The notes below the pieces were generated by a model. The model did no database searches and was not told the DNA's origin. It saw only the letters and a list, made by a program, of their open reading frames with translations. From Candidatus Omnitrophota bacterium (GTDB lineage: Bacteria; Omnitrophota; Gorgyraeia; Gygaellales; Profunditerraquicolaceae), in assembly GCA_028716965.1 (NCBI GenBank), contig JAQUOV010000003.1, positions 140,756-204,755 on the forward strand: 64,000 bases of DNA, written 5' to 3'. Position numbers and translations under genes: made by a program. Positions 41,082 through 57,718 of the stretch are shown here, in pieces. How positions within the stretch are numbered: the first letter of the stretch is position 1; each line of letters starts with the position of its first letter.

Positions 41082-41110
41082 AGTATATATATATTTATTA
41101 TACTTGTCAA
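41082..41110 (-). promoter_or_regulatory. Candidate sigma70-like promoter for the giant gene (TTGACA, 17 nt, TATACT)
   Basis: Minus-strand -35 at 41110..41105 and -10 at 41087..41082; this implies a leader of about 275 nt. Confidence 0.3.
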
Positions 41111-41314
41111 GTAAAAATTGCCCTAAAAAAGGTAGCGCTTTCTTATGATAAGATTCTATAACCCATATACAATTGAAGTACTTTCTAGCCTACAAGAAAT
41201 AGAACTTGTTTGCTAGGTAATAAACAAAAAATTAGAGTCTAGGATAAAAGCTTTAAGTTGATATCAAACCAAAAATGTCAATTTTATTAATTATTTGATG
41301 AGGATTAAATAAGC

Positions 41315-41372
41315 GGGGACAGTTCTCCGATTGGCTCAAGAAACGTCCTTGCTTTAGGGTCAGAAACGTCCC
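41315..41372 (+). repeat. REP-like element copy A
   Basis: About 85% identical to 53541..53598 and to the reverse complement of 52933..52990. Internal GGGAC/GTCCC and AGAAACGTCC sub-repeats. Confidence 0.8.
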
Positions 41373-41445
41373 TTTTTTAGGCTAGATTGGACATTAATTT
41401 GTAGGTTATCTGATAAATTTAACAGATTGGACATTAATTCTATGA

Positions 41446-42519: not shown

Positions 42520-42554
42520 TTATTTCTCTCCTATACGCATAACCCTAAGAACTT

Positions 42555-43796: not shown

Positions 43797-44682
43797 ATTG
43801 CACCATCACGGTAGTCGTATTCTTTAATATGCCTACGGATGCCTCTTTCGGTCCGGAATCTGCCAGGACTACAATACAAAGGTCGCCATGTTGATTGGAA
43901 AAATTAAGCTCTGACACAACCAAGCTCGCAGGCTTAATTGCCTGCTGCACCTTATCATTCTTCGGGTAATCATGTAACATCCCGGTTAGGTCAATCTCTC
44001 CTGAAGCCAGCTCCTTAAGAGGTTTTTCCTCTGCAAGAGACCAGCCATAATCAAGCATTTTATCCTTATAGAACTCCTTTACTTTATCAATATTATCTTT
44101 GACAAAATAGGTTGCCTGCATAAACCCCGGATTCTCCGATAGCGCGATTAAAGCAGCATCCGGATAAACCGGGGCAACATCAATTTTAGGTTTCCCCGAT
44201 AGTTTAGGAATAAAATCATCTTCAGACCGGGGCTTTTTCGTTATCCCCTTCTTTCCTCGCGCGATAGTAAATCTTGTCTTGCCATCCTGAATTGCCCCTT
44301 GCGGAAGAAAATCTATCATAAGGATCTCCCCATCTTTTTCAAAAATAGAATTCAATGTCATTATATCCTTTAAGGATTCCGGTATCTTTAAATTAGGTAT
44401 TTTTTCCATCTCTTTTAATAATTCTTTTTCCTCCCAGTCCAAAGCAGGAAGCTTTAAACGGAAAAAATCGCTTATGGCTTTGGCATCCTGGCTGCTGGCA
44501 TAATGTTTTAATACAAACTCTGTGCCGGCAATATTCCTTGTTTCCTGAAAAACTTCCTCGGCCCCCCAAGGAAGAGGGATAGAATTCCTATCCCACCATG
44601 CAGAATACAAAGGATGCGTTGATAAAAACATTATTAAAAGAAAAAAGCCGGTTAACCACGCAACTTTAAGCCTAAAAAACAT
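43777..44682 (-). CDS. Hypothetical exported protein
   Basis: ATG 44682 with AAGGAGG Shine-Dalgarno; N-terminal hydrophobic signal sequence; 20-nt overlap with the downstream gene. Confidence 0.6.
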   Translation of the reverse strand: MFFRLKVAWLTGFFLLIMFLSTHPLYSAWWDRNSIPLPWGAEEVFQETRNIAGTEFVLKHYASSQDAKAISDFFRLKLPALDWEEKELLKEMEKIPNLKIPESLKDIMTLNSIFEKDGEILMIDFLPQGAIQDGKTRFTIARGKKGITKKPRSEDDFIPKLSGKPKIDVAPVYPDAALIALSENPGFMQATYFVKDNIDKVKEFYKDKMLDYGWSLAEEKPLKELASGEIDLTGMLHDYPKNDKVQQAIKPASLVVSELNFSNQHGDLCIVVLADSGPKEASVGILKNTTTVMVQYEKAGK

Positions 44683-44691
44683 TTAACCTCC

Positions 44692-46074
44692 TTAGTACTT
44701 ATCAACATCTACTATATCGGAACCATACCTTGGATTAGGCGGATCTATGCTTCCTCTTCCTGAAAAATCAGCAACAGCATAACTGGCAGTATCGGGATAA
44801 CGGGTCTTCCATAACCCGAGGTCTGCTCCCTCATGGCTCTGTTTTGTATCAACCCGCGCGAAATGGTCATGGTCAATATCATTTATCCAGCAATCAAAAA
44901 GAAGCAAGGTATCCGCTTCACTACTGCTGCTGAATGTAAGGCCGGGCAATAATCCTGCCAAAGCTAAAACTAACAAAGCAAATGCTGCTGTTCCTGAAAC
45001 AATCGCCGCAGAGTTGCCAGCTATACCGGCAGGCAGCTCAAGCTGTGCCATCGCAGCCAAATCTATACAAGCAGCGCAACAAACAGCCGTTGGGGGCGTA
45101 GGAGGACAGCATGGAGTCTGAGGACAAGCACCAGCTAACTGATCACTAGCGAAACTGTATACTCCTGAAGCTTCAGCTAATTCTAAAGCCGCAGAATCAA
45201 TCAATAACCTGCTCGGAAGAAGTAAAAGAGTTGATATTGCCAAGGGTGGCAAGACCGTAATAGTTAACTCAAACGTATTGACATTTTTAGTAAACACATT
45301 GGAATCCACTGAATGGGACCTTCCCGGAACATCTTTCTGTCCGTCTTTCCAGGAATAATTATAGTGCCCGTTATCTCCTATGCCATCCATAAAATCAACG
45401 TAGGAATCCCTATAGCCGTTCTTTTTTAAGGTATCTGTGACATCTTCGGGAGAGCTTCCTGCCTTTAATTTAGAGCTAATACCGCTGTTAGAGAAAACAA
45501 ACCCATGCCCATTCTTGATAGCCGAACTCCTGCCTTTTATTGCCATGCGCCTGATACGAAGATAAAGATAATACTGGGCAATGCTGGCAGCGGTAATCGC
45601 AAGCCCAATAGCAATAATAGCAGTGCTGGCATCTTCTAATATTCCTGCTGCCGTCAGAGAAAGTCCGGTTGCAACATAAGCGTCGGACGCTGCAGCGCAA
45701 GAAGTAGTGCAAAAGGATGTTGCTTCAGCTGTTATTCCAAGAGATAATGCAGTTGATGCGTACGAATAAGCCATTACCAAGTTATAGAAAACAAACATGA
45801 AGGAAAGGGCTATGGACATATAAGCTGACCAATATGTAGTTATCATAAGGCTGTTTTGCACAGCCACGCTGTTAAACACATTTGCCATTATCGCCCCTGT
45901 TGCCAGGGCTCCGGCATCAGCAGCGTTGGAAGTATCTGTCTTGGTCATCGCCACCTTAGATAAGTTAACAGTAACCAGAGCCATAATTATCACGATCACC
46001 AGGACCAGTATGTATACAGGGGCAAGCTGGCCTTTGTTGTATTTATTTTTGTGATCATGGAAATACGTAAACAT
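44692..46074 (-). CDS. Membrane protein, possibly TadG-like pilus assembly protein; Cys/Pro-rich segment
   Basis: ATG 46074 with GGAGAG Shine-Dalgarno. N-terminus NKGQLAPVYILVLVIVII resembles the Tad_N/TadG N-term; CPQTPCCPPTPPTAVCCAAC. Confidence 0.45.
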   Translation of the reverse strand: MFTYFHDHKNKYNKGQLAPVYILVLVIVIIMALVTVNLSKVAMTKTDTSNAADAGALATGAIMANVFNSVAVQNSLMITTYWSAYMSIALSFMFVFYNLVMAYSYASTALSLGITAEATSFCTTSCAAASDAYVATGLSLTAAGILEDASTAIIAIGLAITAASIAQYYLYLRIRRMAIKGRSSAIKNGHGFVFSNSGISSKLKAGSSPEDVTDTLKKNGYRDSYVDFMDGIGDNGHYNYSWKDGQKDVPGRSHSVDSNVFTKNVNTFELTITVLPPLAISTLLLLPSRLLIDSAALELAEASGVYSFASDQLAGACPQTPCCPPTPPTAVCCAACIDLAAMAQLELPAGIAGNSAAIVSGTAAFALLVLALAGLLPGLTFSSSSEADTLLLFDCWINDIDHDHFARVDTKQSHEGADLGLWKTRYPDTASYAVADFSGRGSIDPPNPRYGSDIVDVDKY

Positions 46075-46076
46075 AA

Positions 46077-46349
46077 CTACTCTCCTCTTAAAACCTTATC
46101 TTCCGTCAGCTCCTCCGGTTTATGAACCGGCCACTGCAGGGTATAAGTATCAGAGGATGTCCCCGCGATTACCCTGCCGGCATTATAACTCTGCTGGCGC
46201 TGCACAATCTGCTTATTTGCCCAGAACCATATCTGCATTATCGCAGCAAACAAGAGCACTATCCCGGCAAAAACAAATGCTATTTCAATCATGCTTTGCG
46301 CAATTTCATCGCGCTTTAACTTTTTTAACCCTAAAACGGAGTAACCCAT
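46077..46349 (-). CDS. TadE-like pseudopilin
   Basis: RDEIAQSMIEIAFVFAGIVLLF matches the TadE_N consensus. Confidence 0.6.
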   Translation of the reverse strand: MGYSVLGLKKLKRDEIAQSMIEIAFVFAGIVLLFAAIMQIWFWANKQIVQRQQSYNAGRVIAGTSSDTYTLQWPVHKPEELTEDKVLRGE

Positions 46350-47113
46350 GTCTTCTCCCTGACTACCTCATTACCTGAATTACTCTGGCTATATTTATAC
46401 TGCCCGTCTGGATCAAGGTACACACCCTGCTTCACCTCATACAATATTCCCTCTTCTATTGGGGGGCTTTCATAATCGTTATCACCGGACTTCTTCTCTA
46501 CTATCTTGTACGGCACGGCAGTAACAATATCATCTTTAAGCCTAGAGGTCCTTTTATTGGTAATAGCATAGGTATCCTCGCTCTTCACATTCGTCTCGTT
46601 AAAAAGAGTATCGGACTCGGTATTCATATTTTCAGTTTGCAATACCCAATACGTCGCTCTTTCCTCGCCTGTTTCCGGATCTATCCTTTCGTGCCCTTTA
46701 ATATAATCATTATACTTAAATACTCCTTCGTCTTCATTGACCCTGAATACAAGCAAGCTGTCCGCAGATGAGCCTTTTGCCGATTTAGGTATAGCCCAAT
46801 ATACACTGGCAGAACCTGTTTGCGTAACATTACTGCCCTGCCTATAACCACCTGCCAGGTTTATCTGGTGCCTGTTCTGTAGAAGGGTATACTGCACAGA
46901 TGCCCCTGCGCCGTCTTCAGCGTATCCAGTATAGGAGTTAGCCTTCTCTAACGCCCTGCGAAAAGCCTCCATCTGCACATATTGCCTGTCATTAAGTTGC
47001 TGTATAAAAGAAAGCAGCGCCCCAAATACAAGCAATATCAAGGTGCCGAATATTGCCATCTCCGCTACTGCCTGGCCTTTCTTATTCGCGCATATCACTT
47101 TAATCACCGCCAT
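46331..47113 (-). CDS. TadE/TadG-like pseudopilin (start trimmed to ATG 47113; track ORF extended to 47227)
   Basis: KKGQAVAEMAIFGTLILLVFG, a TadE-like motif right after the chosen start. Confidence 0.55.
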   Translation of the reverse strand: MAVIKVICANKKGQAVAEMAIFGTLILLVFGALLSFIQQLNDRQYVQMEAFRRALEKANSYTGYAEDGAGASVQYTLLQNRHQINLAGGYRQGSNVTQTGSASVYWAIPKSAKGSSADSLLVFRVNEDEGVFKYNDYIKGHERIDPETGEERATYWVLQTENMNTESDTLFNETNVKSEDTYAITNKRTSRLKDDIVTAVPYKIVEKKSGDNDYESPPIEEGILYEVKQGVYLDPDGQYKYSQSNSGNEVVREKTWVTPF

Positions 47114-47540
47114 CCTCTTCAATCTCTTCGCCTGTTTCAGGGTCGTATTCAATCTCCGGGCCAGGAGCAACATATCCTTCTGAAGCAGGGACAAGATTTC
47201 CCGGCGTATCAGGAACATCTGTATCAACTATTCTACTTGTTACCTTATAGCTCACTTCCTCCAAACCTGAAACGCGCAAACCTCCACCCGTGAATAATTG
47301 GGTATCGGTAGTTAAATCATATTTACTTTCAGCATTACTTTCAGTTCTAGCAGTAGGGGAGATATCCGTCTCCTGTCCCTTTCCTATAAATACATCTGTT
47401 AAATCTTTGACCTTCCCCTGTATGCCGCGCTTAACATAAATATTCATTCCCCACAGCACCGCGGAGATTATTCCTAAAACTATCATATACTCCGCAAAAG
47501 AAGCAGAGGCCCTGCTTAGAATAACCTTCCCCTTTTTCAT
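47100..47540 (-). CDS. Flp-family pilin paralog with C-terminal acidic extension (start ATG 47540)
   Basis: MKKGKVILSRASASFAEYMIVLGIISAVLWGMNIYVKRGIQGK; starts 2 nt after the stop of the upstream gene. Confidence 0.6.
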   Translation of the reverse strand: MKKGKVILSRASASFAEYMIVLGIISAVLWGMNIYVKRGIQGKVKDLTDVFIGKGQETDISPTARTESNAESKYDLTTDTQLFTGGGLRVSGLEEVSYKVTSRIVDTDVPDTPGNLVPASEGYVAPGPEIEYDPETGEEIEEDGGD

Positions 47541-47541
47541 C

Positions 47542-47886
47542 TTACCACCTCGCCGGCTCCGCGCTAAAAGGCAAAACCTCTTCTTCGCGGCTGGTTGCGC
47601 GGCCACTTTCTATCTTGGTATCCATAATACTTTTCTTGTAATCAGTGCTATCCTCCAAATCAGTAACATAAGAATTACTTTGTATACTGACTGTGGTATC
47701 AATCGTAGTAGTAGAATCCTGCATTGCCCCGGGAGAATAAAAATAACCTCCTCCTACCTCATCAGCTGAACTCCGCATCCTGCCTGCAAGGCCACGTTTA
47801 AGATAGACCTGCATAGCGAAAAGCGCGGCCACGATTAAACTGACCATAACCACATATTCTATCGTAGATTGGGCAATATTCTTCAT
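47542..47886 (-). CDS. Flp-family pilin paralog (start ATG 47886)
   Basis: MKNIAQSTIEYVVMVSLIVAALFAMQVYLKRGLAGRMRSSADEVGG. Confidence 0.65.
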   Translation of the reverse strand: MKNIAQSTIEYVVMVSLIVAALFAMQVYLKRGLAGRMRSSADEVGGGYFYSPGAMQDSTTTIDTTVSIQSNSYVTDLEDSTDYKKSIMDTKIESGRATSREEEVLPFSAEPARW

Positions 47887-47896
47887 TTTCGCCCCT

Positions 47897-48061
47897 TTAT
47901 CTCTTGGATTCATTTAATTCCACCTGAATCTGTTTTAAGCGCGCGTTTATGGAGCGTTGTATATACTGGCGCATCGCCAATAAGGCCGTGACAATAACCA
48001 TAATCAGCATAGTATATTCCAGAAAATTCTGTGCGCGCCTGTTGTAAAAGGTATTTAACAT
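47897..48061 (-). CDS. Small Flp-family pilin, 54 aa (below the ORF-track length cutoff)
   Basis: Hand translation: MLNTFYNRRAQNFLEYTMLIMVIVTALLAMRQYIQRSINARLKQIQVELNESKR; GGGGAG/AAGGGA Shine-Dalgarno. Confidence 0.6.
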   Translation of the reverse strand: MLNTFYNRRAQNFLEYTMLIMVIVTALLAMRQYIQRSINARLKQIQVELNESKR

Positions 48062-48078
48062 TCCCTTACTCCCCTTCT

Positions 48079-48228
48079 TTATTTTAGATACGCCACACCC
48101 TTGTTGAAGTAATTATAAAAGGCGTCGCGTACGGTATCTATAAAGCCAGTAGATACTGCCAATGCCATCAGCAATGCAAGGACCACGAAATATTCAATTA
48201 CACTTTGCCCCTTAATCTTTCTTTTCAT
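48079..48228 (-). CDS. Small Flp pilin, 49 aa, canonical G/QSVIEY motif (below the ORF-track cutoff)
   Basis: Hand translation: MKRKIKGQSVIEYFVVLALLMALAVSTGFIDTVRDAFYNYFNKGVAYLK; starts 2 nt after the TadC stop. Confidence 0.65.
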   Translation of the reverse strand: MKRKIKGQSVIEYFVVLALLMALAVSTGFIDTVRDAFYNYFNKGVAYLK

Positions 48229-48230
48229 CT

Positions 48231-49139
48231 TTAAAACCCAAAGTTAATCCCGCCGCGGGCAAACTGCAGGATGATCGGGCCTCCCACAATAATCATTACT
48301 ACCGGCAAAATAAAGGCAAACAAAGGAAAGAGCAGTTTAATCGGCGCTTTTAATGCCATTGATTCGCCGTGCTGGAACCTCCTTACCCTCATCTCCTCTG
48401 CCTGTACATTTAAAGCCTCGGACATAGGCGTACCCATGCGGTCAGCCTGTATAAGCGTACGCACAAAAGAATGCACTTCAGGGATATCCACGCGCCAACC
48501 GAAATTCTTTAAGGCCTCCCGCCTGCTTTTGCCGACCTGCGTCTCGCGGTAAACCTCCCCTAATTCCCTGGTCAGGTCGCATGGTTTCAAATCTTTAACC
48601 ACGCGGTTTACCGCCAACATGAAATCCATACCACCGCTGACACAAAGGGTCAATAGGTCAATGATATTGGGCAGGTCACGCCGTATATTGTGCACTCTTT
48701 TGGATATCTTTTGATTAAGCCACATCTCCGGGATAAAGAAACCTATGGCCAAAGAAATAATCAAAATCATATTCGTCGGCATGTTGCTGCTAAAGAAGGT
48801 AAACGCAATAACCGGAACAAAGATTATCGCCAACACCTTAAATGCCAAGAACTCCAGCACCCCCATCGGCAACCCGGCTTTAATCAGCCTCCTCCTTATC
48901 GCCTCTATTGAAAAAGGGATACGCCTTTCAAAATCCTTAAACCTGGCGGTAAGAGGCAGCCAAGCATTCTCCGGCTTTACCGTGTATTTGTCCTGGCTTA
49001 ACTCCATCTCTACCTTATCATTATCAAATATCTGAGCAGGCAGGCGCATCTTTTCCAGGCCGAATATCTTAGAACCGAACTGCAACAGCACAAGATAGAT
49101 GCTGGCAGTTAAAAGTAAAACCACTAAAGCTAATGTCAT
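48231..49139 (-). CDS. TadC-like inner-membrane platform protein (T2SS-F domain)
   Basis: T2SSF-like LPNIIDLLTLCVSGGMDFMLAV ... TPMSEAL plus TM helices. Confidence 0.75.
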   Translation of the reverse strand: MTLALVVLLLTASIYLVLLQFGSKIFGLEKMRLPAQIFDNDKVEMELSQDKYTVKPENAWLPLTARFKDFERRIPFSIEAIRRRLIKAGLPMGVLEFLAFKVLAIIFVPVIAFTFFSSNMPTNMILIISLAIGFFIPEMWLNQKISKRVHNIRRDLPNIIDLLTLCVSGGMDFMLAVNRVVKDLKPCDLTRELGEVYRETQVGKSRREALKNFGWRVDIPEVHSFVRTLIQADRMGTPMSEALNVQAEEMRVRRFQHGESMALKAPIKLLFPLFAFILPVVMIIVGGPIILQFARGGINFGF

Positions 49140-49151
49140 CCAGATTCTCCT

Positions 49152-50003
49152 TTATATATCCACCCTGCTTAATTTACGTATAAAAATAATACCAAGTATT
49201 TCAGAAACAATCGCGTAACCCATAAGGCCTCTTCCGAAGTTATCTTTAATGAACACGTCAAAAAAACCTGGATTCACCTTATACACAAATATCCCGAATA
49301 AGATAGGCAATATCGACATAATTATCCCCTGCATGTTTGCCTGCACGCAGAGGGCCTGGACCCTTCCAATAAGCTTATTCCTCTCCTGGATAGTATAGAT
49401 TACCCTGGAAAATGTCTGGGTAAGGTCTCCTCCGGTCTCCCTGGCTACCAGCATCGCGGTTACAACCATATCCAGTTCATCCAGGCGCATACGCTTCTTA
49501 AGCTTAGTCATCGCCTCCTCAAGAGAAACACCCATCTGCATCTGGCGTATGACAAGGCCAAACTCCTGGCTGATGGGGTTAGGCATCTCCTGCGCCAACT
49601 CCTCAAATGACTGCAAGAGGCTTAACCCCGCCTTAAGAGAGCTGGATAGAATCATTAACCCGTCAACAAGCTGCGAGGCGAATTTTTGCCTGCGTAAAGC
49701 TTCAAGCCGCTTGACGACAAAAATAGGAATAGCCAACCCCGCTGCTGCCGCCGCCGCGGCAACCCATATATTATAGGTAATGAAAAAACCCAATAACCCA
49801 CTTATTATAGGTGAAAGCACATCGATCAGCAGCAGCTTGTTTAACGTGATATCCAGAAACATGCTGTTTAACTTCGGGGTTATTTTATCCAACCTTTTCC
49901 TTTGCCAGCGATCCATTAAGGTTTCAAGAAAAGGATAAGACAGATTAATAAGATAAAAAACCCCAAAGAAGACCACTGCGAACAACAGTATCTTTGTCAG
50001 CAT
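49152..50003 (-). CDS. TadB-like inner-membrane platform protein (T2SS-F domain); alternative GTG start at 50009
   Basis: ILSSSLKAGLSLLQSFEELAQ ... VARETGGDLTQTFSRV; GGAG Shine-Dalgarno before ATG 50003. Confidence 0.75.
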   Translation of the reverse strand: MLTKILLFAVVFFGVFYLINLSYPFLETLMDRWQRKRLDKITPKLNSMFLDITLNKLLLIDVLSPIISGLLGFFITYNIWVAAAAAAAGLAIPIFVVKRLEALRRQKFASQLVDGLMILSSSLKAGLSLLQSFEELAQEMPNPISQEFGLVIRQMQMGVSLEEAMTKLKKRMRLDELDMVVTAMLVARETGGDLTQTFSRVIYTIQERNKLIGRVQALCVQANMQGIIMSILPILFGIFVYKVNPGFFDVFIKDNFGRGLMGYAIVSEILGIIFIRKLSRVDI

Positions 50004-50033
50004 TTGCACAACTCCATATTTGTACTTATCGCA

Positions 50034-50360
50034 TTACTTCCACCAGAACTCCTGGTCAGAAGTAGCAACTGATTCGCTTGTAGTTTTATCACTCGTTTGG
50101 CCATCAGTCGGGATCGTAGATACAGTTTGCTTATCTTTAAGTACCTCGCTAGATTCGGTACTGCTGGTAGTTGTATAATGCCCCGTGGTGTAACCCGGTG
50201 AAAACTGTTGGCCCATACTATCGGCACTTTCTCTTAATTTACCCTGGTATCCTCTCTTAAGATAAACCTGCATTGCGATAAGTCCGGCGACGATCACCCC
50301 GATCAAAATAGCATACTCCAATGTTGTCTGCGCCTTATTCCGCTTAAATTTGTTAAACAT
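50034..50360 (-). CDS. Flp-family pilin paralog with S/T-rich C-terminal extension (start ATG 50360)
   Basis: MFNKFKRNKAQTTLEYAILIGVIVAGLIAMQVYLKRGYQGKLRESADSMG; AAGGAGGTGA Shine-Dalgarno. Confidence 0.7.
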   Translation of the reverse strand: MFNKFKRNKAQTTLEYAILIGVIVAGLIAMQVYLKRGYQGKLRESADSMGQQFSPGYTTGHYTTTSSTESSEVLKDKQTVSTIPTDGQTSDKTTSESVATSDQEFWWK

Positions 50361-50388
50361 AAAACTCACCTCCTTAATCATTATATTT

Positions 50389-50727
50389 TTATTCTTCCTT
50401 AGGTACCAATATCGTCTGAGAACCACCTCTCCTGCTAGCATCGGTAGAACTCCTGGTGACCGCACCTCCAGTTAGCAAATCTTCATCTTCACTTGAGTTG
50501 CGCTTGCTGCTAAAATCTGATTCTAAATAATAGGGCTCATATTGCTTAGTTGTAAAGGTCACCGAATCTCCTGATGCGCCTCCGTAGTCAACATAATTCA
50601 CCGCGTCCTTGATCCTGCCCTGGAAACCCCTCTTAACATAAGTCTGCATACCTATTACTGCAGCAACTATTAACCCCAGCACGATAACATACTCTGCCGT
50701 GCTCTGCGCTCTTATATTCCTTAACAT
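50389..50727 (-). CDS. Flp-family pilin paralog (start ATG 50727)
   Basis: MLRNIRAQSTAEYVIVLGLIVAAVIGMQTYVKRGFQGRIKD; GGAGGTGA Shine-Dalgarno. Confidence 0.7.
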   Translation of the reverse strand: MLRNIRAQSTAEYVIVLGLIVAAVIGMQTYVKRGFQGRIKDAVNYVDYGGASGDSVTFTTKQYEPYYLESDFSSKRNSSEDEDLLTGGAVTRSSTDASRRGGSQTILVPKEE

Positions 50728-50753
50728 TTTCAATCACCTCCTTAAGAATTGCC

Positions 50754-50927
50754 TTATTCGAAATTAACATGGTTGACCGCGGTCTCCGCCTGCGTCGCCA
50801 CATGATCAAGCATATTATTCATTTTCGGCTTGATAATCGAGTTTGCGGCCAAGATTACTGCCCCTATAATCGCCGTGAAGATAATAATGTATTCAAGAGT
50901 ACTCTGCGCCTTTTTCTGCTTTAACAT
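50754..50927 (-). CDS. Flp-family pilin, 57 aa (start ATG 50927); candidate major pilin
   Basis: MLKQKKAQSTLEYIIIFTAIIGAVILAANS...; GGGGGTGA Shine-Dalgarno. Confidence 0.7.
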   Translation of the reverse strand: MLKQKKAQSTLEYIIIFTAIIGAVILAANSIIKPKMNNMLDHVATQAETAVNHVNFE

Positions 50928-50961
50928 TTTTCTCACCCCCTCTCTAAGATTTTCTGAAACT

Positions 50962-51021
50962 TTACCAGTATAAAAAATAAAAAAACCGAAGTTTCAATCT
51001 CCGTTACAAGAATCTTCGGTT
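50962..51021 (-). terminator. Rho-independent terminator (minus strand) downstream of the transposase gene
   Basis: Stem AACCGAAG (50984-50991) / CTTCGGTT (51014-51021) with a 22-nt loop, then on the minus strand a U-tract of 7 T, A, 6 T. Confidence 0.6.
50967..50997 (-). promoter_or_regulatory. Possible promoter for the pilin genes, overlapping the terminator (TTGAAA, 19 nt, TATACT)
   Basis: -35 at 50997..50992 and -10 at 50972..50967 on the minus strand; spacer longer than optimal. Confidence 0.25.
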
Positions 51022-51230
51022 CTCGCTAAGCCGGCTAATATTCTGGCCTGACCTAATATAAGATAATCAAAGAAAACAAATTTTGGCGTATATAGTCCCG
51101 TGGCCTTGCGCATCCACTTTCCTCCGATAGCGGAATTGCTTTTTTCTTATTACTTTTAAAATGCACCTAAAATATAACACCTATTAGTAAGCATGTCAAT
51201 AATACTTAACCTCCTTTAAGAAAGCGTTTT

Positions 51231-52844
51231 CTAAAGCAGGCACCAAAGGCGGCTGCTGTCCGCGAAGATGATTTCCCTCTCGTTTATCCTATGACAGGCA
51301 TATTCCAGTTCTTTTAGGAAAGGATACCCCGCAGGAGGGTAGAATTTCACTATGGAGCAGCCATCCCCTCTCTTTAGAATTGTATTAAGGCTATAAAAAT
51401 GTTGTTTTGCCTCCGGAAAACACTTGTCTTTAAAGACCTCGGGCAGAAAATACCAACGCACATACAAATCCAGGATCTGCAGATAATTCTCAAAAATTGC
51501 CTTTGTTTGAGGGGGGTTTTGAAGCTGCTCTGCACATTCCGCTGATAAAAAACGTTGGGAGTTGCCTGTATAAGTAAAGAACTCTATCTTCCTGCTGTAA
51601 TCCTTGAATGTTTCCCCTAAATTCGGCCAACGGCTAAGATATATATTTGCCAGCTTTTCAGGCTGGCTACTATCAAAAACAAGGTTACTTAAAATAACCA
51701 TCCTGGTTTTTTCTGAAAGTGTGTTTCTTATTGCGCAGCCCTTTAATGTAACTGACTGTCCTGCATCTGGTTGAGATATTTCAATCTCTATTTCAGAGAG
51801 GAAAAATTTTAGCCCCACCGGCTCGAAAACGAATGGTTTGAATTCTCCTATATTTAAGATCTTACGATAATCTACAAATTGCCAGGGCCACATTGCAAAG
51901 ACAAAAAAACGCTTTTTGCCGGAATTTAACTGGATTGAGTTTAACTCTTCAAGCTTGTTCCCATAAATCTTTAAACCGGCAACATCTCTACCTTTTAACT
52001 CCAGCCCTAAGATAAAATTAAAAAATTCCTTAGTAGGGACATTGTGCCCTGGGGCGGTAAATAAAACTAAAGGGGCATTATCTTTGAAGTGCCTATTTAT
52101 GTAACGACTTGTATTGCATATAGTTGTAGAAAAAGAATATGGCGTATGGGGGGTGGACCAAACAGTATACATATTGCCATCTACATATGAACTTTCATTG
52201 TTTGAAAAATCAATTCTCATACAACGGGCCTCTTTAAACACATTCCTGGTTGCCTGGGATATAACCTTATCTAATGACGTAACTGATTGTAAATCATTAT
52301 GATACGACATTATATCTTCAAAAGAGAGATTCTTGCCAATTAGCGCCTGTAAACCACTGATCTGGTTTTCTTGAGATTTCTCAAATAAAGGGAGATAAAT
52401 TAAGCCTTCTGTCTTTGCCATAATATCGTCTATGCCAATCTTCAGGCTATTCTTAACCGATTCTATGATACTTAGGCTGCCACCGATTAAGCTATCTGCA
52501 GCTTTCAGAAGGATTGCTCCTGTACACTGTATTTCCGGCTGTGGCTGAGCCTGAAGGCTGACTTTTGGCAGTTCTTCAGCCAGCTTTTCGGGCTCAGGCA
52601 CTAATCTCAAAACCTCCTGTATGGACTCTTTTATCGAATCCTTTTTCCTAAGCCTGGACCTTCCTACAGGCATGCTCAAGCCAGCCTCCTTAAACACTGA
52701 ATTAATGCTGGATTTGGATACCTCTATCTGAAATTTCTGTAAAATTAGATGAGATAGGCTCCTACAGCTTAGCGCGGGATTGGCTCTTTTCTGATCAAGG
52801 ATAAATTGCCTTGTTTCTGGCTTTAGTTTATGAATTACACCCAT
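51231..52844 (-). CDS. Putative DDE transposase (IS4/IS1634-like) with N-terminal HTH; start at ATG 52844 (track used TTG 52874)
   Basis: N-terminal HTH-like KPETRQFILDQKRANPALSCRSLSHLIL; C-terminal YLSRWPNLGETFKDYSRKIE resembles the IS4-family YxxRxxxExxxxxxK region. Confidence 0.5.
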   Translation of the reverse strand: MGVIHKLKPETRQFILDQKRANPALSCRSLSHLILQKFQIEVSKSSINSVFKEAGLSMPVGRSRLRKKDSIKESIQEVLRLVPEPEKLAEELPKVSLQAQPQPEIQCTGAILLKAADSLIGGSLSIIESVKNSLKIGIDDIMAKTEGLIYLPLFEKSQENQISGLQALIGKNLSFEDIMSYHNDLQSVTSLDKVISQATRNVFKEARCMRIDFSNNESSYVDGNMYTVWSTPHTPYSFSTTICNTSRYINRHFKDNAPLVLFTAPGHNVPTKEFFNFILGLELKGRDVAGLKIYGNKLEELNSIQLNSGKKRFFVFAMWPWQFVDYRKILNIGEFKPFVFEPVGLKFFLSEIEIEISQPDAGQSVTLKGCAIRNTLSEKTRMVILSNLVFDSSQPEKLANIYLSRWPNLGETFKDYSRKIEFFTYTGNSQRFLSAECAEQLQNPPQTKAIFENYLQILDLYVRWYFLPEVFKDKCFPEAKQHFYSLNTILKRGDGCSIVKFYPPAGYPFLKELEYACHRINEREIIFADSSRLWCLL

Positions 52845-52932
52845 ATTTTCTCCAGATTGGACATTATTAGCCAATATTAATGTACAATAAAATAGTCAAT
52901 ATGTCAACAATAATTCAGTTTGGACATTATTA

Positions 52933-52990
52933 GGGACGCTTTTGCACCTAAAGCAGGGACGTTTCTTAGCCTAATCGGAAAACTGTCCCC
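52933..52990 (-). repeat. REP-like element copy B (inverted relative to A and C)
   Basis: Reverse complement GGGGACAGTTTTCCGATTAGGCTAAGAAACGTCCCTGCTTTAGGTGCAAAAGCGTCCC matches copies A and C. Confidence 0.8.
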
Positions 52991-53057
52991 CCCCCTCCAG
53001 GAATATTTTGTTAGATTTTATTATATTGCAGCGTCTATTATAGCGGAGGTGATAAAT

Positions 53058-53540
53058 ATGCCAAGAAGTGCAAGATTAATTCTAGATAACGCATGCTATC
53101 ATTTGATGGCACGAGGGAATCAAAGACAATATACTTTTATTGAAGATGAAGATTTCAATAAATACCTTGAGCTATTAAAACATTATAAAAACAAGTATTA
53201 TTTTAAACTGTATGGTTATTGCTTAATGCCAAACCATGTGCATTTAATAGTAGAGCTTAATAAATCATCTATACTGGGAAAGATTATGCAAGGACTGAAC
53301 TTAGCATATACAATCTGGTTCAACAAAAAATATAATAAAGTGGGCCATCTCTGGCAGGGAAGATATAAGAGTAAGCTGATTCAAAAGAATAAATACTTGT
53401 TAGATTGCATAGAATATGTGGAGTTTAATCCAATAAGATCAAATATGTGGAAATCTCCTTTTGACCATCCTTGGAGCAGCTGGAAAGAACGCATGGGATA
53501 TAAAGAAAACAGCCTCGTAGATACTCCTAACTTAAGCTAA
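53058..53540 (+). CDS. REP-associated tyrosine transposase (RAYT, IS200-like Y1 HuH transposase)
   Basis: HuH motif LMPNHVHLIVE; catalytic Tyr region WQGRYKSKLI; GGAGGTGA Shine-Dalgarno 6 nt before ATG 53058 (track start 52920 is an over-extension); flanked by inverted REP copies B and C. Confidence 0.85.
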   Translation: MPRSARLILDNACYHLMARGNQRQYTFIEDEDFNKYLELLKHYKNKYYFKLYGYCLMPNHVHLIVELNKSSILGKIMQGLNLAYTIWFNKKYNKVGHLWQGRYKSKLIQKNKYLLDCIEYVEFNPIRSNMWKSPFDHPWSSWKERMGYKENSLVDTPNLS

Positions 53541-53598
53541 GGGGACACTTCTCCGATTGGGTAGGGAAGCGTCCCTGCTTTGGGTTCAGAAACGTCCC
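53541..53598 (+). repeat. REP-like element copy C
   Basis: GGGGACACTTCTCCGATTGGGTAGGGAAGCGTCCCTGCTTTGGGTTCAGAAACGTCCC, immediately after the RAYT stop codon. Confidence 0.8.
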
Positions 53599-53942
53599 TA
53601 ATCTATTAAGGTGATGTGGTCGCCTGTTTGGGTAGAGGTTCTTTCCAGGGTTCCTGCGGGAAGTTCAATACTAAATAGCGCGTTTAAATAAATACCGCTT
53701 ATCCTAAACGGCCGCATACTGCGGATCTCCCTTGTAATTCTGTTATTGGAATCAACAAAGATTACGTCTATGGCAAATTGCATAAAGAAAGTGTGGATTG
53801 AATTACAGGGTTTGATTATTAAAGCTTGTCCTTGTTTAAGCTCCCTGCGGTTTAACAAGCCAACCATCCTTCTTAACGGAGTTTTGGCAATAGCCGCATC
53901 CTCTGCTAAGCTTGTACCGCGGTCTTTGTTGATTATTTTCAT
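53598..53942 (-). CDS. DUF192-family protein
   Basis: HTFFMQFAIDVIFVD matches the DUF192 core; the ATG overlaps the TGA of the upstream ATPase gene (ATGA). Confidence 0.65.
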   Translation of the reverse strand: MKIINKDRGTSLAEDAAIAKTPLRRMVGLLNRRELKQGQALIIKPCNSIHTFFMQFAIDVIFVDSNNRITREIRSMRPFRISGIYLNALFSIELPAGTLERTSTQTGDHITLID

Positions 53943-56101
53943 AAAGAAGGGTTAAAAATATCGTCGGAGATCGAGATGCCCTGCACCCTGAGCTGTTCCA
54001 CAAAAGAGGGGATGTAACCTGTAGGTTTGAATTCACCAAGGACTTTGCCGTCCTTGTCCACTCCTGTCTGTTTGAATATAAAAATATCCTTTAAACCAAC
54101 ATGCACCTCATCAATCATGCCGATCATCTCTGAAACCTGCGTTACCTTTCTTGAACCATCGGATAACCTGGCAGTATGGATAATAATATTGATTGCCGAG
54201 GCGATCATCTCCCTGATTGCACGCACAGGAAGTTCTGCCCCCGACATAAGGATCATAGAATCCATCCTGGAGATAACGTCCCGGGTTGAATTCGCATGTA
54301 TCGTAGTCATAGATCCGTCGTGGCCTGTATTCATTGCCTGAAGCATATCCAGAGTCTCCGCCCCACGGCACTCGCCGATTATAATCCTATCGGGGCGCAT
54401 ACGCAGAGAATTGCGGAAAAGGTCCCTGGAGGTAATCGCGCCTTTCCCTTCAACGTTAGGAGGCCGTGATTCAAGGCGCACCCAATGTTCCTGTTTTAAT
54501 TTCAATTCCGCAGCATCTTCAATAGTGATAATACGCTCAGTAGGCGGGATAAATACTGACAGCACATTCAATACGGTTGTTTTACCCGAGCCCGTCCCAC
54601 CGGAAACAATTGTATTCTTTCTGGATAAGATACATGCCTGCATAAAATCAGCCATGGGTTTGGTTAAAGTATTTAAACGTAATAAGTCGTCCGTAACCAG
54701 CCGCTCGCGTCCAAATTTTCTTATAGTCAGCGTAGGGCCGGTTAAAGAAAGCGGAGGGATGATCGCGTTAACGCGTGAGCCGTCGGAAAGCCGGGCGTCC
54801 ACCATGGGGGCGCTTTCATCAATGCGCCTGCCTAAAGGAGCGATTATACGTTCAATAACCTGGCGTACCTGTTCATTGGAAAGGAACCTCTTGGGGGATA
54901 ACTCTATTCTGCCGTGGCGCTCAATGTATATCTGGTTTTTATTATTGACCATGATATCGGAAATATCCGAATCATTGACTAAATCCTCCAGTGGCCCAAG
55001 CCCCAATGCCTCATCAATTATCTCTTTGACCAGCCTTTTCCTTACATCGGAAGGAGAAAGGAACACCCCGGTTTCTTCCGCCAGGGCATTGGTAATTACC
55101 TTCTCGGTTTTTTCTTTTACGGCCTGAGCCTTGGCCGGGTCACTCATATCAATCTCTAAATGCTTAAGGTCAAGTTTTTCAATCAACCTTTGATGTATGC
55201 GCTTCTTTAATTCAATGATCTCATCCGGCTCCCTATCTTCACCTTCCGGGGTAAAAGCCTCATGGCCTAATTTAAATTTCTTCCAGAAATCCCCCTCTTT
55301 TGCAAAAAAACCCTCGCCTGCTGCAGAAGGCAAGGCAATCTCCTGTCGCTTAAGAAATAAACTCTCATCCTCGCTAAGCAGTGTGGCTAATTTCTTAATA
55401 CTTTGGCTGGCTCTACAATTAAGGTTGTCTATGACAAGTGGTATCCGCCTGTTTAATGCTAAACCCGCAGCCTTGCCTTCTGAAGATATACGGCTGATTA
55501 TCTCGCATGGCACAGCAGCACGCACCTCCTGCCAGATAACCCCGCCTAAGCTCTGGGCGCGGTTTAAAATGATCTTAATCATGCCCAAGGGGATATAGAG
55601 CGACTGCAAAATATCCAAAGACCACTTTGTTTGATAGACGGATAATATATCCGGTGTTACTACCAAAAGTACAAGGTTGGCGTGGTTGAAGACGGAAAAC
55701 AGGCTTTCGGTAAAAGCGCGTCCGGCGTCTATGATTATATAGTCATACTCCTTTTCCAACGCATCCAGAACAAGCTTGATCTTTTCGCTGTCTACACGAA
55801 ATATCTGGTTGGGTTTTAATACTGCGGGAAGGAAATCAATACTGTATTTCTCAATATAAATCAGGTCTCCTTTTACGGAGGCCTTTGTGGGGTCCTTTTT
55901 CAATGCCTCTGCCAAATCAAGCAGCGATTTGTCAGCCGTAATATCAAGCCAGCGGGGCATGTCTCCTGCGCCCTGTAAATCTAAATCAATAAGCGCTACT
56001 TTTTTACGCAGGTAATAACCCAGGCTGACAGCCAAATTCGTCGCAAGCAAGGTTTTGCCTACCCCGCCCTTTGTGCTGAATATGACTATTGTTTTTGACA
56101 T
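53939..56101 (-). CDS. Fusion protein: N-terminal TadZ/CpaE-like ParA/MinD ATPase domain plus C-terminal TadA/CpaF secretion ATPase
   Basis: N-term IVIFSTKGGVGKT (deviant Walker A). C-term VSGGTGSGKTT, RMRPDRIIIGECRG, AMNTGHDGSMTTIHANS (VirB11/CpaF family). Confidence 0.85.
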   Translation of the reverse strand: MSKTIVIFSTKGGVGKTLLATNLAVSLGYYLRKKVALIDLDLQGAGDMPRWLDITADKSLLDLAEALKKDPTKASVKGDLIYIEKYSIDFLPAVLKPNQIFRVDSEKIKLVLDALEKEYDYIIIDAGRAFTESLFSVFNHANLVLLVVTPDILSVYQTKWSLDILQSLYIPLGMIKIILNRAQSLGGVIWQEVRAAVPCEIISRISSEGKAAGLALNRRIPLVIDNLNCRASQSIKKLATLLSEDESLFLKRQEIALPSAAGEGFFAKEGDFWKKFKLGHEAFTPEGEDREPDEIIELKKRIHQRLIEKLDLKHLEIDMSDPAKAQAVKEKTEKVITNALAEETGVFLSPSDVRKRLVKEIIDEALGLGPLEDLVNDSDISDIMVNNKNQIYIERHGRIELSPKRFLSNEQVRQVIERIIAPLGRRIDESAPMVDARLSDGSRVNAIIPPLSLTGPTLTIRKFGRERLVTDDLLRLNTLTKPMADFMQACILSRKNTIVSGGTGSGKTTVLNVLSVFIPPTERIITIEDAAELKLKQEHWVRLESRPPNVEGKGAITSRDLFRNSLRMRPDRIIIGECRGAETLDMLQAMNTGHDGSMTTIHANSTRDVISRMDSMILMSGAELPVRAIREMIASAINIIIHTARLSDGSRKVTQVSEMIGMIDEVHVGLKDIFIFKQTGVDKDGKVLGEFKPTGYIPSFVEQLRVQGISISDDIFNPSL

Positions 56102-56110
56102 GGCAAACGA

Positions 56111-57718
56111 TTAATTATTTCTAAAGTCTATCGGTACATCAACCCAAAGTTCCTGAGATTCTATCTGGGGAGGGAAAGGAGGATAAGGCGCCTGTTTTTT
56201 GGCTATATCATAAGCAGCGTCATCTAAAACCTTATAGCCCGAAGATTGCACTAATTTGATGCCTTTTAAAGCCCCGCTTGCGGTAATATTAAGGTTCAGC
56301 CGTACATTACCTTCCCAACCCGCGTTCTTGGCTTGTTGGGGATAATAAGCTGATTTAACTATCTTTGATTTAACTATCCGTACATAATTTCCGAGACTTC
56401 CCGGTAACTCCGGCTCGTTAAAAGATTCTTGTTTTTTCTCCGCGACAGAATCGGAAGAAGGTTTCTTCCCTTTAGGCTCATCCCGAGCGACTATAGTAGG
56501 TACGAGTGTAACGAATAATTCCGTATCATCTCTTGCCCCTTGCCCTTTCCCTATTTTAGTTACTCTTTGCCTGAAGAATAAGCCTAAAACCGGGATATCC
56601 GCAAGCCAAGGGAATTTACGCAGGTCTTCTTCTGTCTTTTGCTTAATCAAGCCGCCTATTGCCATGATCTGGCCGTTATTAAGGTAAAGTTCGCTGGAGA
56701 CGGAACGCTTGCTCAAAGGATATGCCTTAGCAGTAGGCGCGTCTTCTGATCCCAGGATCTCAGCTTCCCCTACGTCACTGACCTCTACATACAAATTTAA
56801 TTTTATTCGGTCATCTTCGGTTACAGAAGGCTTTATCTTTAACTTAATGCCGTATTCTTTATATTCCACGTTTGTGGAGGAGCTGCCTCCTGTTGACACG
56901 GCTGTAGTGAAAACAGGTTTTTCACCTCCCACAAGCAATTGTGCTTCTTTATTAGTTTGACAAGATAGCCGAGGACGAGAGAGAATACGCGCCTTGCCTT
57001 CCTGTATTAAAGCATCCAGCTTTAAAGTAAATGCGGCGCGGGTTATATTGGCAACATGAAATAACTTTCCCCAGGTTGTCCCTGCCGCTTGAATACCTGA
57101 AGAACCCACTTCAGTTAAGGTCATTGAACCCGGCCATGAAAACCCAAGGGTCTTGGTAGCATCTTTATTAAGCTCCAGTATCTGCACATCAATTTCTATT
57201 ACTGTTTCCTCTTCTTTGACCTCGACAAGATCAGATATCTTATCTTTAAGGTCGTTTAAGGCCAAGGCGATCCTTTCTTTATCCTTGGAAGTCTTTACCC
57301 TGCCCAAAATAATGACTTTTCCTTCGTCCTCTTCTGCCTTGGTATAAACCTCCGGCAAATCCAATTGGCCTAATAAATTATCCACCCGCTGCTTGATCAA
57401 GGTCATATCTTCCCTTATTACTTTTATATTTTCGGACTGCTCGCCAAAAGTATCCCAGTATACCAATGAAGTCTGTCCTGGTGATTTTGCGGAAAGAGCG
57501 ATCTCTGTTTCAGTGACATTAGAAATATCCGCTACCAGGGGATTACCGATAATGACCCTGGTGGGCATTTGCGTAGGGATTATTTTGGTCTCCCCCACAA
57601 GTAATTTTAATGTTTCCTGCGGGGCGTCGCCGGCTAATATGGGACCCACCAATACCAGCATCAAGACCGGAATCAAGCTTACCATGATAAAAGCGTTTAT
57701 TTTCTTACACATATTCAT
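56111..57718 (-). CDS. Secretin (CpaC/RcpA-like) with C-terminal TonB_C domain
   Basis: Secretin core LLVGGEKPV ... FPWLADIPVLGLFFRQR ... ELFVTLVPTIV. C-terminus YYPQQAKNAGWEGNVRLNLNITASGALKGIKLVQSSGYKVLDDAAYDIAKKQAPYPPFP matches the TonB C-terminal consensus. Confidence 0.85.
   Translation of the reverse strand: MNMCKKINAFIMVSLIPVLMLVLVGPILAGDAPQETLKLLVGETKIIPTQMPTRVIIGNPLVADISNVTETEIALSAKSPGQTSLVYWDTFGEQSENIKVIREDMTLIKQRVDNLLGQLDLPEVYTKAEEDEGKVIILGRVKTSKDKERIALALNDLKDKISDLVEVKEEETVIEIDVQILELNKDATKTLGFSWPGSMTLTEVGSSGIQAAGTTWGKLFHVANITRAAFTLKLDALIQEGKARILSRPRLSCQTNKEAQLLVGGEKPVFTTAVSTGGSSSTNVEYKEYGIKLKIKPSVTEDDRIKLNLYVEVSDVGEAEILGSEDAPTAKAYPLSKRSVSSELYLNNGQIMAIGGLIKQKTEEDLRKFPWLADIPVLGLFFRQRVTKIGKGQGARDDTELFVTLVPTIVARDEPKGKKPSSDSVAEKKQESFNEPELPGSLGNYVRIVKSKIVKSAYYPQQAKNAGWEGNVRLNLNITASGALKGIKLVQSSGYKVLDDAAYDIAKKQAPYPPFPPQIESQELWVDVPIDFRNN

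Follow-up and report, generated by a model that had tools for sequence, protein, structure and literature searches.

We investigated a 2.66-kb interval inside a Tad/Flp pilus gene cluster of a Candidatus Omnitrophota bacterium, located in a 64,000-nt stretch of contig JAQUOV010000003.1 (positions 140,756 to 204,755; hereafter, the window). The cluster runs along the minus strand from 59529 to 41446, and the interval extends from the stop codon of a DUF192 gene to the start of the first pilin gene (50937..53597), containing one minus-strand open reading frame (ORF; 51231..52874) and one plus-strand ORF (52920..53540). A first-pass annotation, which put the interval at 2.7 kb, close to its measured size, interpreted it as an insertion that had split the cluster. 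Based on conservation, synteny, sequence motifs, repeats, riboswitch homology and selection, we consider it reasonably probable that two operons of the Omnitrophota Tad locus meet in this interval, which holds three separate things, namely, an optional unit made up of a gene for a REP-associated tyrosine transposase (RAYT) and its repetitive extragenic palindromes (REPs), a fixed gene for a large, exapted transposase-like protein, and a riboswitch-controlled pilin leader. Under this model, the large protein would bind AATGTCCAATCT boxes around its own promoter, resulting in autoregulation, and would also act at boxes located beyond the last cluster gene; transcription of the pilin and platform genes would start at their own conserved promoter and pass through a c-di-GMP-I riboswitch; and the RAYT, with its catalytic motifs intact, would be paired with a cognate 62-nt REP that is also dispersed in related genomes.

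The minus-strand ORF comprises 547 codons, with a conserved start at ATG 52844, preceded by GGAGA, so that the gene itself, delineated by ORF, synteny, helix-turn-helix (HTH) matches and a structural model, encodes 537 amino acids ('HTH547'; 51231..52844, minus strand; hereafter, the large gene). Its surroundings are as described in the first-pass annotation. Upstream, in this order, lie genes for a PpiC-type rotamase, CpaB/RcpC, the secretin, a CpaE/CpaF fusion and DUF192, and after the interval follow three Flp-like pilins with class III signal peptides, TadB, TadC, small pilin-like genes and a TadG-like protein. We compared this arrangement with 80 loci (denoted L001 and so on) obtained from a scan of one genome per GTDB species, nearly all of them labelled Omnitrophota. 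The large gene occupies the canonical place, after DUF192 and before the Flp pilins, in 52 of the 80 loci; it is inverted in place in 7, lies ahead of the rotamase-CpaB-secretin-CpaE/F operon (that is, on the PpiC side) in 4, and heads the TadB/C part only in another 7, and in the 7 loci lacking Tad genes altogether, the stretch does not exceed 8.7 kb. Wherever the locus of one of the 80 species is long enough, the large gene is found in or beside the Tad locus. Relatives whose large protein is 71%, 62% and 47% identical to that of the window all keep the order rotamase, CpaB, secretin, CpaE/F, DUF192, opposite-strand Y1 transposase, large gene, Flp pilins, TadB, TadC. Since the intervening gene is shared by the relatives, the idea that a transposase insertion had split the cluster is refuted for the large gene.

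Other features of the large gene point in the same direction. A repeat search of the window detected no inverted pair bracketing 51231..52874, the dN/dS ratio of 0.11-0.17, between those of the secretin and DUF192 genes, indicates purifying selection, and the number of copies within single metagenome-assembled genomes tracks the number of Tad loci. Judging by these sequence comparisons, the large gene appears not to belong to a mobile element but to be a fixed component of the Tad locus throughout the phylum, present as a single copy. The scenario in which a DDE-transposase insertion sequence (IS) and a REP-RAYT-REP unit recently split a continuous Tad operon, with a chance promoter on the terminator side driving the pilins, is therefore barely credible. 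Although the large protein does contain a transposase-type HTH and a weakly Tn5-like fold, the RAYT unit is absent from the junction in 32 of the 62 informative species loci (those showing both DUF192 and the large gene), and the junction accepts other cargo in some lineages, Tad linkage of the gene holds wherever the locus is long enough, its ends carry no inverted repeats, and it evolves under purifying selection; its promoter and boxes are conserved phylum-wide; and the promoter, riboswitch and terminator of the pilin operon are conserved with or without the RAYT, whereas the previously proposed promoter at 50967..50997 is not. What survives of the insertion interpretation is the accessory character of the RAYT unit, which is present in 23 and absent in 32 of the 62 loci, but not the mobility of the large gene. 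Genes labelled 'transposase' or 'hypothetical' at this position should accordingly not be taken as a sign of a disrupted pilus locus.

The designation of the minus-strand ORF as a DDE transposase was not confirmed: the ORF is present, but the matches are limited to a weak, N-terminal HTH of the transposase type. The protein starts with an IS630-type HTH, which a disordered linker (residues 57-101) connects to a core of 440 aa. Among 43 family members, Pfam recognized HTH_33 in 37, HTH_32 in 22 and HTH_Tnp_Tc3_2 in 14, and no DDE catalytic-domain family in any; for the protein of the window, Pfam, NCBIfam and a PDB-sequence profile search all failed to yield a DDE domain model, and the NCBIfam IS630 model covers the HTH only, at 21.6 bits compared to a cutoff of 100. 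The family is compact, with 856 clusters at 50% identity in an exhaustive profile search. Its members are all unnamed or 'hypothetical' Candidatus Omnitrophota proteins with identities grading from 71% down to 40%, most homologue clusters are found on one contig, and a few on two or three. In a profile search of 1.84 billion proteins, the matches listed were strong family members only, with no bridge to IS families among them. In some lineages, the linker between the HTH and the core has grown to several hundred low-complexity residues rich in K and E (P0129, P0137 and P0210, of about 830 aa; also L071 and L082). We found no description of this protein family in the literature searched.

Structure prediction was more informative with respect to ancestry. 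The AlphaFold2 model, built from a 43-sequence alignment (pLDDT 81.6), consists of a three-helix HTH, the disordered linker, a helical bundle, a strand-helix-strand unit, a beta-rich insertion and long C-terminal helices. In a Foldseek search against the PDB, the top five matches were all to Tn5, either the transposase itself or the inhibitor form (E-values from 6e-4 to 2e-2, probabilities reaching 0.98), followed by unrelated proteins at E > 0.3; for a core-only model (residues 196-537; pLDDT 89.2, pTM 0.89), the top six matches were Tn5 chains, the best with E 1.8e-3. The family shares an invariant helix, Y402-x2-(R/H)-W-P-N-x2-E411-x-F-x-D415-x2-R-K, that recalls the Y-R-E-K signature of the IS4 type, and an invariant strand, Y-(L/I)-D222-G-Q. 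The position of the IS4-type hhh-D-R-G-Y motif is taken by an invariant A264-P265-G266-Y, and the next acidic candidate, residue 268, is D in 28 members, N in 12, including that of the window, and E in 3, so that at most two of the three carboxylates are strictly conserved. The best-conserved region is the HTH, with 12 of the 36 invariant residues falling within the first 62 positions. Going by the predicted fold, the large protein is probably derived, distantly, from a transposase, and the substituted second catalytic position suggests that the catalytic activity has probably been lost. It would then be an exapted, sequence-specific DNA-binding protein.

Candidate targets for such a protein are near-invariant AATGTCCAATCT boxes, which lie on both sides of the large gene's promoter and recur after the last Tad gene. 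A promoter scan identified a sigma-70-like promoter of the large gene, TTGACA-17-TACATT (52879..52907, minus strand), and motif alignment delineated a distal box, AATAATGTCCAAACT, just upstream of the -35 hexamer (52917..52931, minus strand) and a proximal box, AATAATGTCCAATCT, directly before the GGAGA ribosome-binding site (52854..52868, minus strand). Relative to the promoter, one box of the window is at about +3..+17 and the other just beyond the -35 hexamer, and the two are arranged as direct repeats. By motif matching, two tandem TTAATGTCCAATCT boxes, 40 nt apart (41384..41438, minus strand), were detected directly after the last gene of the cluster (41446..42519, minus strand). The motif, AGATTGGACATTATT, was first noticed beside the left REP arm, and its occurrences in the window are at 52854, 52917, 41384 and 41424.

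These boxes are conserved across the phylum together with the promoter. In 71 of 75 species, the gene strand reads AA-TGTCCAA-(T/A)CT-GGAGG directly before the start codon, and in 47 of those, the proximal box is at a fixed offset of -19 from the ATG; the core positions of this box are 86-100% conserved, but the rest of the region is not. A TTGAC[AT] -35 hexamer is in the equivalent place in 72 of the 75 species, and 47 have a second box (-150..-60) upstream of it, mostly 61-65 nt from the proximal box, with a third, inverted box between the -35 and -10 hexamers in several lineages. Across all loci, the box 10-mer is matched 169 times, compared to 20 matches in shuffled sequence. The majority of the matches (110) are no more than 200 nt upstream of the large gene, 16 are inside long ORFs, which is about the chance level, and the other 43 are intergenic, most of them in groups of two or three directly after the last Tad gene. 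About a dozen further species loci likewise have paired boxes behind the last Tad gene, for example, L009, L010, L016, L018, L021, L024, L027, L031, L037 and L045. Where the large gene is inverted (L014, L020 and L021), the boxes are in the intergenic region between this gene and the divergent riboswitch-pilin operon. Two other assignments of the motif were discarded. The TTGGACATTA motif does not appear to be a part of the REP, given that its orientation relative to the REP differs between the two sites in the window, that it is found upstream of the large gene in species lacking the RAYT, and that it is absent beside dispersed REP copies. Nor do the boxes at 41384 and 41424 appear to be operators of the giant gene located downstream of the Tad cluster, the promoter of which is about 300 nt further on (41110..41082).

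The simplest interpretation of this pattern is that the large protein binds the boxes and represses or tunes its own promoter, with a second site at the end of the cluster. Alternatively, the large protein could be an accessory or assembly factor of the Tad pilus that does not bind DNA, with an incidental likeness to transposases, the boxes being bound by another regulator or acting in the mRNA. The weak similarity to the Tn5 fold, the absence of a DDE signal at the sequence level and the location of the proximal box in the predicted 5' untranslated region, beside the ribosome-binding site, are all compatible with such a role, and the link between the protein and the boxes is itself indirect. 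Nevertheless, we regard this alternative as unlikely because HTH matches are obtained for most family members, with the HTH being the best-conserved region, inspection of the sequence reveals neither a signal peptide nor a membrane segment, the distal box is upstream of the -35 hexamer and hence outside the transcript of the large gene, and the boxes follow the large gene when it is inverted.

Another possibility is that the large protein is an active recombinase and that the operon led by its gene is flanked, at head and tail, by its recognition ends, the TGTCCAATCT boxes, so that the pilin/platform module could be mobilized, inverted or excised. Boxes are indeed present at both ends of the module, the large gene is inverted in 7 lineages and moved ahead of PpiC in 4, a module led by the large gene but lacking the upstream operon exists in some genomes (e.g., L015 and L023), and D222, E411 and D415 are invariant. 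However, the boxes of one end are mostly direct rather than inverted repeats of those of the other, no invariant acidic residue is found where the second catalytic one would be expected, gene order around the module is stable in 52 of the 80 species, no duplicated target sites were seen, and the divergence of the large gene tracks that of its neighbors. An active recombinase of this kind thus seems quite improbable. We give little credence to the notion that the pilin/platform module of about 11.5 kb (41384..52931) is a programmed invertible, excisable or transferable cassette, with the protein recognizing, and perhaps also cutting or synapsing, the AATGTCCAATCT boxes on either side of it; if true, this would amount to pilus phase variation or module mobility of an undescribed kind, run by an exapted Tn5-like enzyme.

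With autoregulation by the large protein as the favored explanation for the boxes, the pilin leader represents the second control element at the junction. The Flp pilin operon has its own promoter, TTGACA-17-TATATT with an extended TG (51171..51199, minus strand), which was found by promoter scan and is conserved in a leader alignment of 11 loci. It is followed by a diverged aptamer of the c-di-GMP-I (GEMM-I) type, with a 49-nt insertion in the second arm (51022..51150, minus strand; RF01051), and by an intrinsic terminator consisting of a long hairpin and a U-run (50970..51021, minus strand; hairpin and scan), ahead of the first Flp-like pilin gene with its class III signal peptide (50754..50936, minus strand; ORF and Pfam calls). 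The first-pass annotation was correct in reporting a strong terminator here, given that a hairpin with a T-run is present at 51021..50970 on the minus strand, but this element is the expression platform of the riboswitch. In contrast, its suggestion that a promoter at 50967..50997 had been recruited for the pilin genes did not withstand scrutiny: that promoter was not reported by the scan, overlaps the terminator and, by eye, reads TTGAAA-19 nt-TATACT with a -10 hexamer that is not conserved in relatives, whereas the conserved promoter is the one at 51199..51171.

The leader of the window matches RF01051 over the full length of the model at 17 bits (E 0.46 in a 306-nt search), below the gathering score of 35, whereas the orthologous leaders of L012, L028 and L019 exceed that score, with 43.6, 41.1 and 37.1 bits. 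The core GCGCAAAGCCACGG ([AG]CGCAA[AG]GCC[AT]CGG) is found 3' of the large gene in 30 loci, and pairing in the P1 stem is preserved although its arms show 22 distinct sequences among 25 leaders, covariation having been counted for P1 only. The P1 hairpin loop is a conserved GGAGG, not a GNRA tetraloop, both in the window (about 51118..51127) and in 24 orthologous leaders; this loop has the same sequence as a ribosome-binding site and might pair with an anti-Shine-Dalgarno element. The promoter, riboswitch and terminator are kept in relatives with and without the RAYT. By homology, the leader element is a diverged member of the known c-di-GMP-I riboswitch family, with a predicted response to the ligand. 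The 3' aptamer strand, CCGGGTTACC, could in many loci pair with a complementary GGTAACCCGG that lies downstream and is followed by Ts, and given this complementarity, c-di-GMP would be expected to act as an anti-terminator in the pilin leader.

A second riboswitch, of the c-di-GMP-I-GGC family (RF03167), is located at 40970..41062 on the minus strand (62.7 bits compared to a gathering score of 59; E 4e-13), between the strong promoter at 41110..41082 and a giant ORF of at least 13,600 codons (2..40801, minus strand) that lies directly downstream of the Tad cluster on the same strand and runs past the start of the window. A member of the RF03167 family also follows the Tad cluster in L010 (20959..21053). 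Giant ORFs beside Tad or type II secretion system genes are known in Omnitrophota (PMC10066038; bioRxiv 10.64898/2026.06.07.730766), and riboswitches are not mentioned in the Omnitrophota literature searched.

The third component of the junction, the plus-strand ORF 52920..53540, had been annotated as a RAYT of the HUH/Y1 type flanked by inverted REP copies, and this identification was borne out. The real start codon is the ATG at 53058, behind GGAGG, giving a 160-aa protein that matches the length of its orthologues (53058..53540, plus strand; identified by Pfam, NCBIfam and motifs); the gene is oriented away from the transposase-like HTH gene, and the G+C content drops to 0.30-0.35 across this ORF only. 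The protein matches Pfam Y1_Tnp (PF01797) with E 5e-18 and the NCBIfam model REP_Tyr_transpos (NF047646) with 73.2 bits, under the cutoff of 80, with the orthologues scoring 59.8-78.2 bits against the same model; the match to the IS200 model is far weaker (18.8 bits). The HxH motif (H60, H62), Y120 within Y-x-E-x-NP, and GHLWQGR(Y/F) are invariant among 19 orthologues, and the dN/dS ratio is 0.10-0.16.

Inverted repeat analysis and pattern matching delineated two REP arms that are 62 nt long, inverted relative to each other and 81% complementary. The left arm (52929..52990) abuts the distal TGTCCAA box and comprises two direct AGGGACG(Y)TT(Y) boxes and one inverted GTCCCC box, whereas the outer end of the right arm (53541..53602) overlaps the TAG stop codon of DUF192 (53598-53600). 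The general layout of an arm is AGGGACG(Y)TT(Y)-N7-AAAGCAGGGACG...CCAATCGGAGAAGTGTCCCC, that is, two direct boxes followed by one inverted box, with the last two boxes capable of pairing as an imperfect hairpin of -8 to -10 kcal/mol (-9.9 kcal/mol for the right arm, z = -1.8). The upstream operon probably has its 3' end at the REP hairpin that covers the stop codon of DUF192.

A solo third copy of the REP, found by pattern match, follows the last gene of the Tad cluster (41313..41376). Altogether, a 30-nt REP pattern has 3 matches in the window and none in 100 shuffles. Inverted REPs flank the RAYT in L001, L003 and L005 as well, and also in many other loci, where the REP cores are lineage-specific. 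The pattern was also found on 21 stretches of JGI metagenome contigs, four of which are RAYT-flanking and two at the end of a Tad cluster, like the solo copy of the window, whereas the remaining 15 have no Tad gene or RAYT nearby; in four of these 15, a second, inverted REP copy is located nearby, resembling REPIN doublets. Thus, with the third copy in the window and the 15 non-Tad contigs, REP copies do occur elsewhere; their absence would, according to the first-pass annotation, have refuted its interpretation. The 64-kb window contains a single RAYT copy. We conclude that the REP-RAYT-REP unit is a genuine, optional accessory element, and by analogy with known RAYTs, the enzyme most likely maintains a population of REPs or REPINs. 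The REP copies adjoin clusters of TGTCCAA boxes at both ends of the pilin/platform module (52929 next to 52917, and 41313-41376 next to 41384) and also at the distal sites of L009, L010 and L027. Furthermore, TGTCC is common to the inverted box of the REP, GTGTCCCC, and the operator-like box TGTCCAA, which could reflect targeting or coincidence.

The history of this element differs between short and long evolutionary distances. A RAYT of the window family is present at the junction in 23 of the 62 informative loci, with a gap between DUF192 and the large gene of typically 650-900 bp; in 32 loci, the junction is empty, with a gap of 0-426 bp, and in the remaining 7, it holds something else. In loci lacking the RAYT, the distal box is within tens of bases of the DUF192 stop codon, so that the unit, where present, falls precisely in the space separating the upstream operon from the large gene's promoter. 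Comparing the window with L001, dS is 1.14 for the RAYT and 0.90-0.98 for its neighbors; this match within the window's clade implies long residence at the junction, and the substitution rates thus suggest that the RAYT unit has been resident since the common ancestor of that clade. Across the phylum, however, similarity between RAYTs sorts by the type of the REP core (GGGACGT, GGGACAC or GGGTCAG), and RAYT divergence is uncorrelated with that of CpaE/F (Mantel r = 0.02, p = 0.43), whereas the secretin (r = 0.57), DUF192 (0.53) and the large HTH gene (0.33) all show significant correlation (p <= 0.004, with p = 0.004 for the HTH gene). The closest relative without a RAYT of the window type, L007, with CpaE/F 92% identical, carries at its junction (2906..3700) an unrelated RAYT-like gene of 178 aa that scores 59.8 bits against the RAYT model; perfect palindromes, GTAGGGAGCAGGCATGCCTGCTCCCTAC, occur on its promoter side and once within the ORF, and the junction also contains a run of TTCCCTACGTA repeats. 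These patterns indicate that, over deeper time, different RAYT/REP lineages have apparently occupied the same junction.

We weighed this succession of lineages against a simpler history in which the RAYT unit is ancestral at the junction phylum-wide and was lost many times, the incongruence being noise from a short, saturated protein. The identical position and orientation of the unit relative to DUF192 in 23 species scattered over the CpaEF tree, the agreement between the dS values of the RAYT and its neighbors within the window's clade, and a decaying RAYT copy in L075, split into two ORFs, are all readily accommodated by such ancestral presence. It is harder to reconcile with the grouping of RAYTs by REP type across the CpaEF tree, given that three neighboring genes are congruent with that tree, with the unrelated RAYT/REP pair at the L007 junction, and with the close RAYT homologues, 61-71% identical, found at a second conserved site. 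We therefore consider ancestral presence followed by repeated loss possible but doubtful, and favor repeated occupation.

The second conserved site is located between the gene for an ECF-type (extracytoplasmic function) sigma factor, beside a CHAT/TPR protein, and the H+-pyrophosphatase (H+-PPase) gene, and it is represented by RAYTs 61-71% identical to that of the window in many samples (L108-L115, L125 and L126). The homologues between the ECF-sigma and H+-PPase genes, on other contigs, rule out confinement of this RAYT to Tad loci; three other sampled RAYT clusters are at the Tad junction. Unrelated cargo is found at the junction in other lineages, and in one of them, represented by L005 (6523..7584; equal to L010), a gene for a DEDD/IS110-family transposase is inserted between the RAYT and the left REP arm, moving that arm 2 kb away from the RAYT. 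In species without a junction RAYT, distant RAYT-like genes (35-50% identity) are located just after TadC, near the distal cluster of boxes (L041 20707..21384; L059 20954..21679; L060 21733..22047; L061 18985..19164), two of them with short flanking inverted repeats.

Several observations weigh against the interpretation developed here. The Tn5 fold similarity of the large protein is weak, with a TM score of about 0.2 and a root-mean-square deviation of 13-19 A; searches of Pfam, the PDB and hhalign gave no sequence or profile link to any DDE family, the hhalign comparison of the large-protein profile with the Tn5 sequence yielding a probability of 0.1%. The boxes might be bound by another regulator, or the proximal box might function at the RNA level in the 5' untranslated region, so that box binding by the large protein is a suggestion drawn from position and conservation. 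The riboswitch copy of the window scores only 17 bits, the stability of the REP hairpins is unremarkable (z between -0.7 and -1.9), and the trees behind the congruence tests are simple neighbor-joining or identity matrices on short proteins.

Beyond the interval, several features of the locus deserve mention. The CpaE/CpaF fusion gene and the secretin gene are at 53939..56101 and 56111..57718 on the minus strand; the former joins a TadZ/CpaE-like ParA domain and a CpaF/TadA ATPase in a single 720-aa protein, the latter has a C-terminal TonB_C domain, and both architectures are kept in relatives. No prepilin peptidase was seen in the Tad cluster of the window. In 5 of 8 relatives scanned, the rotamase gene at the head of the locus is preceded, at a distance of a few hundred bases, by a tRNA gene (L001 816..890; L010 926..1000; L019 3439..3513; L024 3457..3531; L032 3179..3253).

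Omnitrophota are uncultured, ultra-small bacteria and presumed predators or parasites for which Tad pili and giant surface proteins are the main candidates for host interaction (PMC10066038). In the literature checked, their Tad loci are described by the classical components only. The present analysis adds three putative control elements to the locus, namely, the large HTH protein together with its boxes, the c-di-GMP riboswitch of the pilin operon, and a second such riboswitch on the adjacent giant gene. The HTH protein with its phylum-wide boxes is an unannotated family with a predicted regulatory function.

The best and only consistent structural match of the large protein is the Tn5/IS50 transposase of the IS4 family (PDB 1MUH, 1MM8, 4DM0). 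It shares with Tn5 the strand-helix core, the beta-rich insertion, and the long helix with a Y-x2-R-W...E...K-like signature and an invariant Glu, but differs in having no detectable sequence or profile similarity, a TM score of about 0.2, an IS630-like N-terminal domain and Ala at the second Asp; the large gene is also set apart by its lack of inverted ends, its presence as a single copy and its synteny. Exapted transposases acting as DNA-binding regulators are known from plants (FHY3/FAR1) and bacteria, where TnpB-derived TldR proteins repress flagellin genes. The parallel with these cases consists in a transposase-derived protein that is fixed at one locus under purifying selection, with short conserved DNA sites by a surface-appendage operon. 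The differences are that the ancestry here would combine an IS630 HTH with a Tn5-like core, that no guide RNA is involved, and that the regulatory role is deduced from genomic context. In the literature searched, we found no published example of an exapted transposase tied to Tad pili. Should the protein be confirmed as the factor that binds the boxes, it would provide a clear example, in bacteria, of exaptation in which a DDE-type transposase came to regulate a surface appendage.

The pilin-leader element resembles RF01051 c-di-GMP-I riboswitches in the GCGCAAAGCCACGG core, the two-arm architecture, the covariation in P1, the intrinsic terminator that follows and the location ahead of pilus genes, and departs from them in the 17-bit score of the window copy, the 49-nt insertion and the GGAGG loop of P1 in place of the GNRA tetraloop.

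Finally, RAYT/REP-REPIN systems have been described in Pseudomonas and Enterobacteria (Nunvar 2010; Bertels and Rainey 2011, PMC3116915; Bertels et al. 2017, PMC5581495). As in those systems, a single HUH/Y1 gene lies between inverted REPs, the REP is dispersed extragenically, with some inverted doublets among the copies, and the gene retains its catalytic motifs and evolves under purifying selection. RAYTs are stable among close relatives and incongruent over long times (PMC5581495), and the behavior of the element at the Tad junction fits this reported pattern. Its distinguishing features are the Omnitrophota host, a 62-nt REP with two direct boxes and one inverted box, a score of 73 bits against the cutoff of 80, and the repeated occupation of one Tad junction, even by unrelated RAYT lineages. 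Repeated colonization of one junction is an added feature compared to the known pattern. These findings extend REP/RAYT systems to another phylum, and a junction repeatedly colonized by different RAYT lineages bears on how such elements choose, and are retained at, their home sites.

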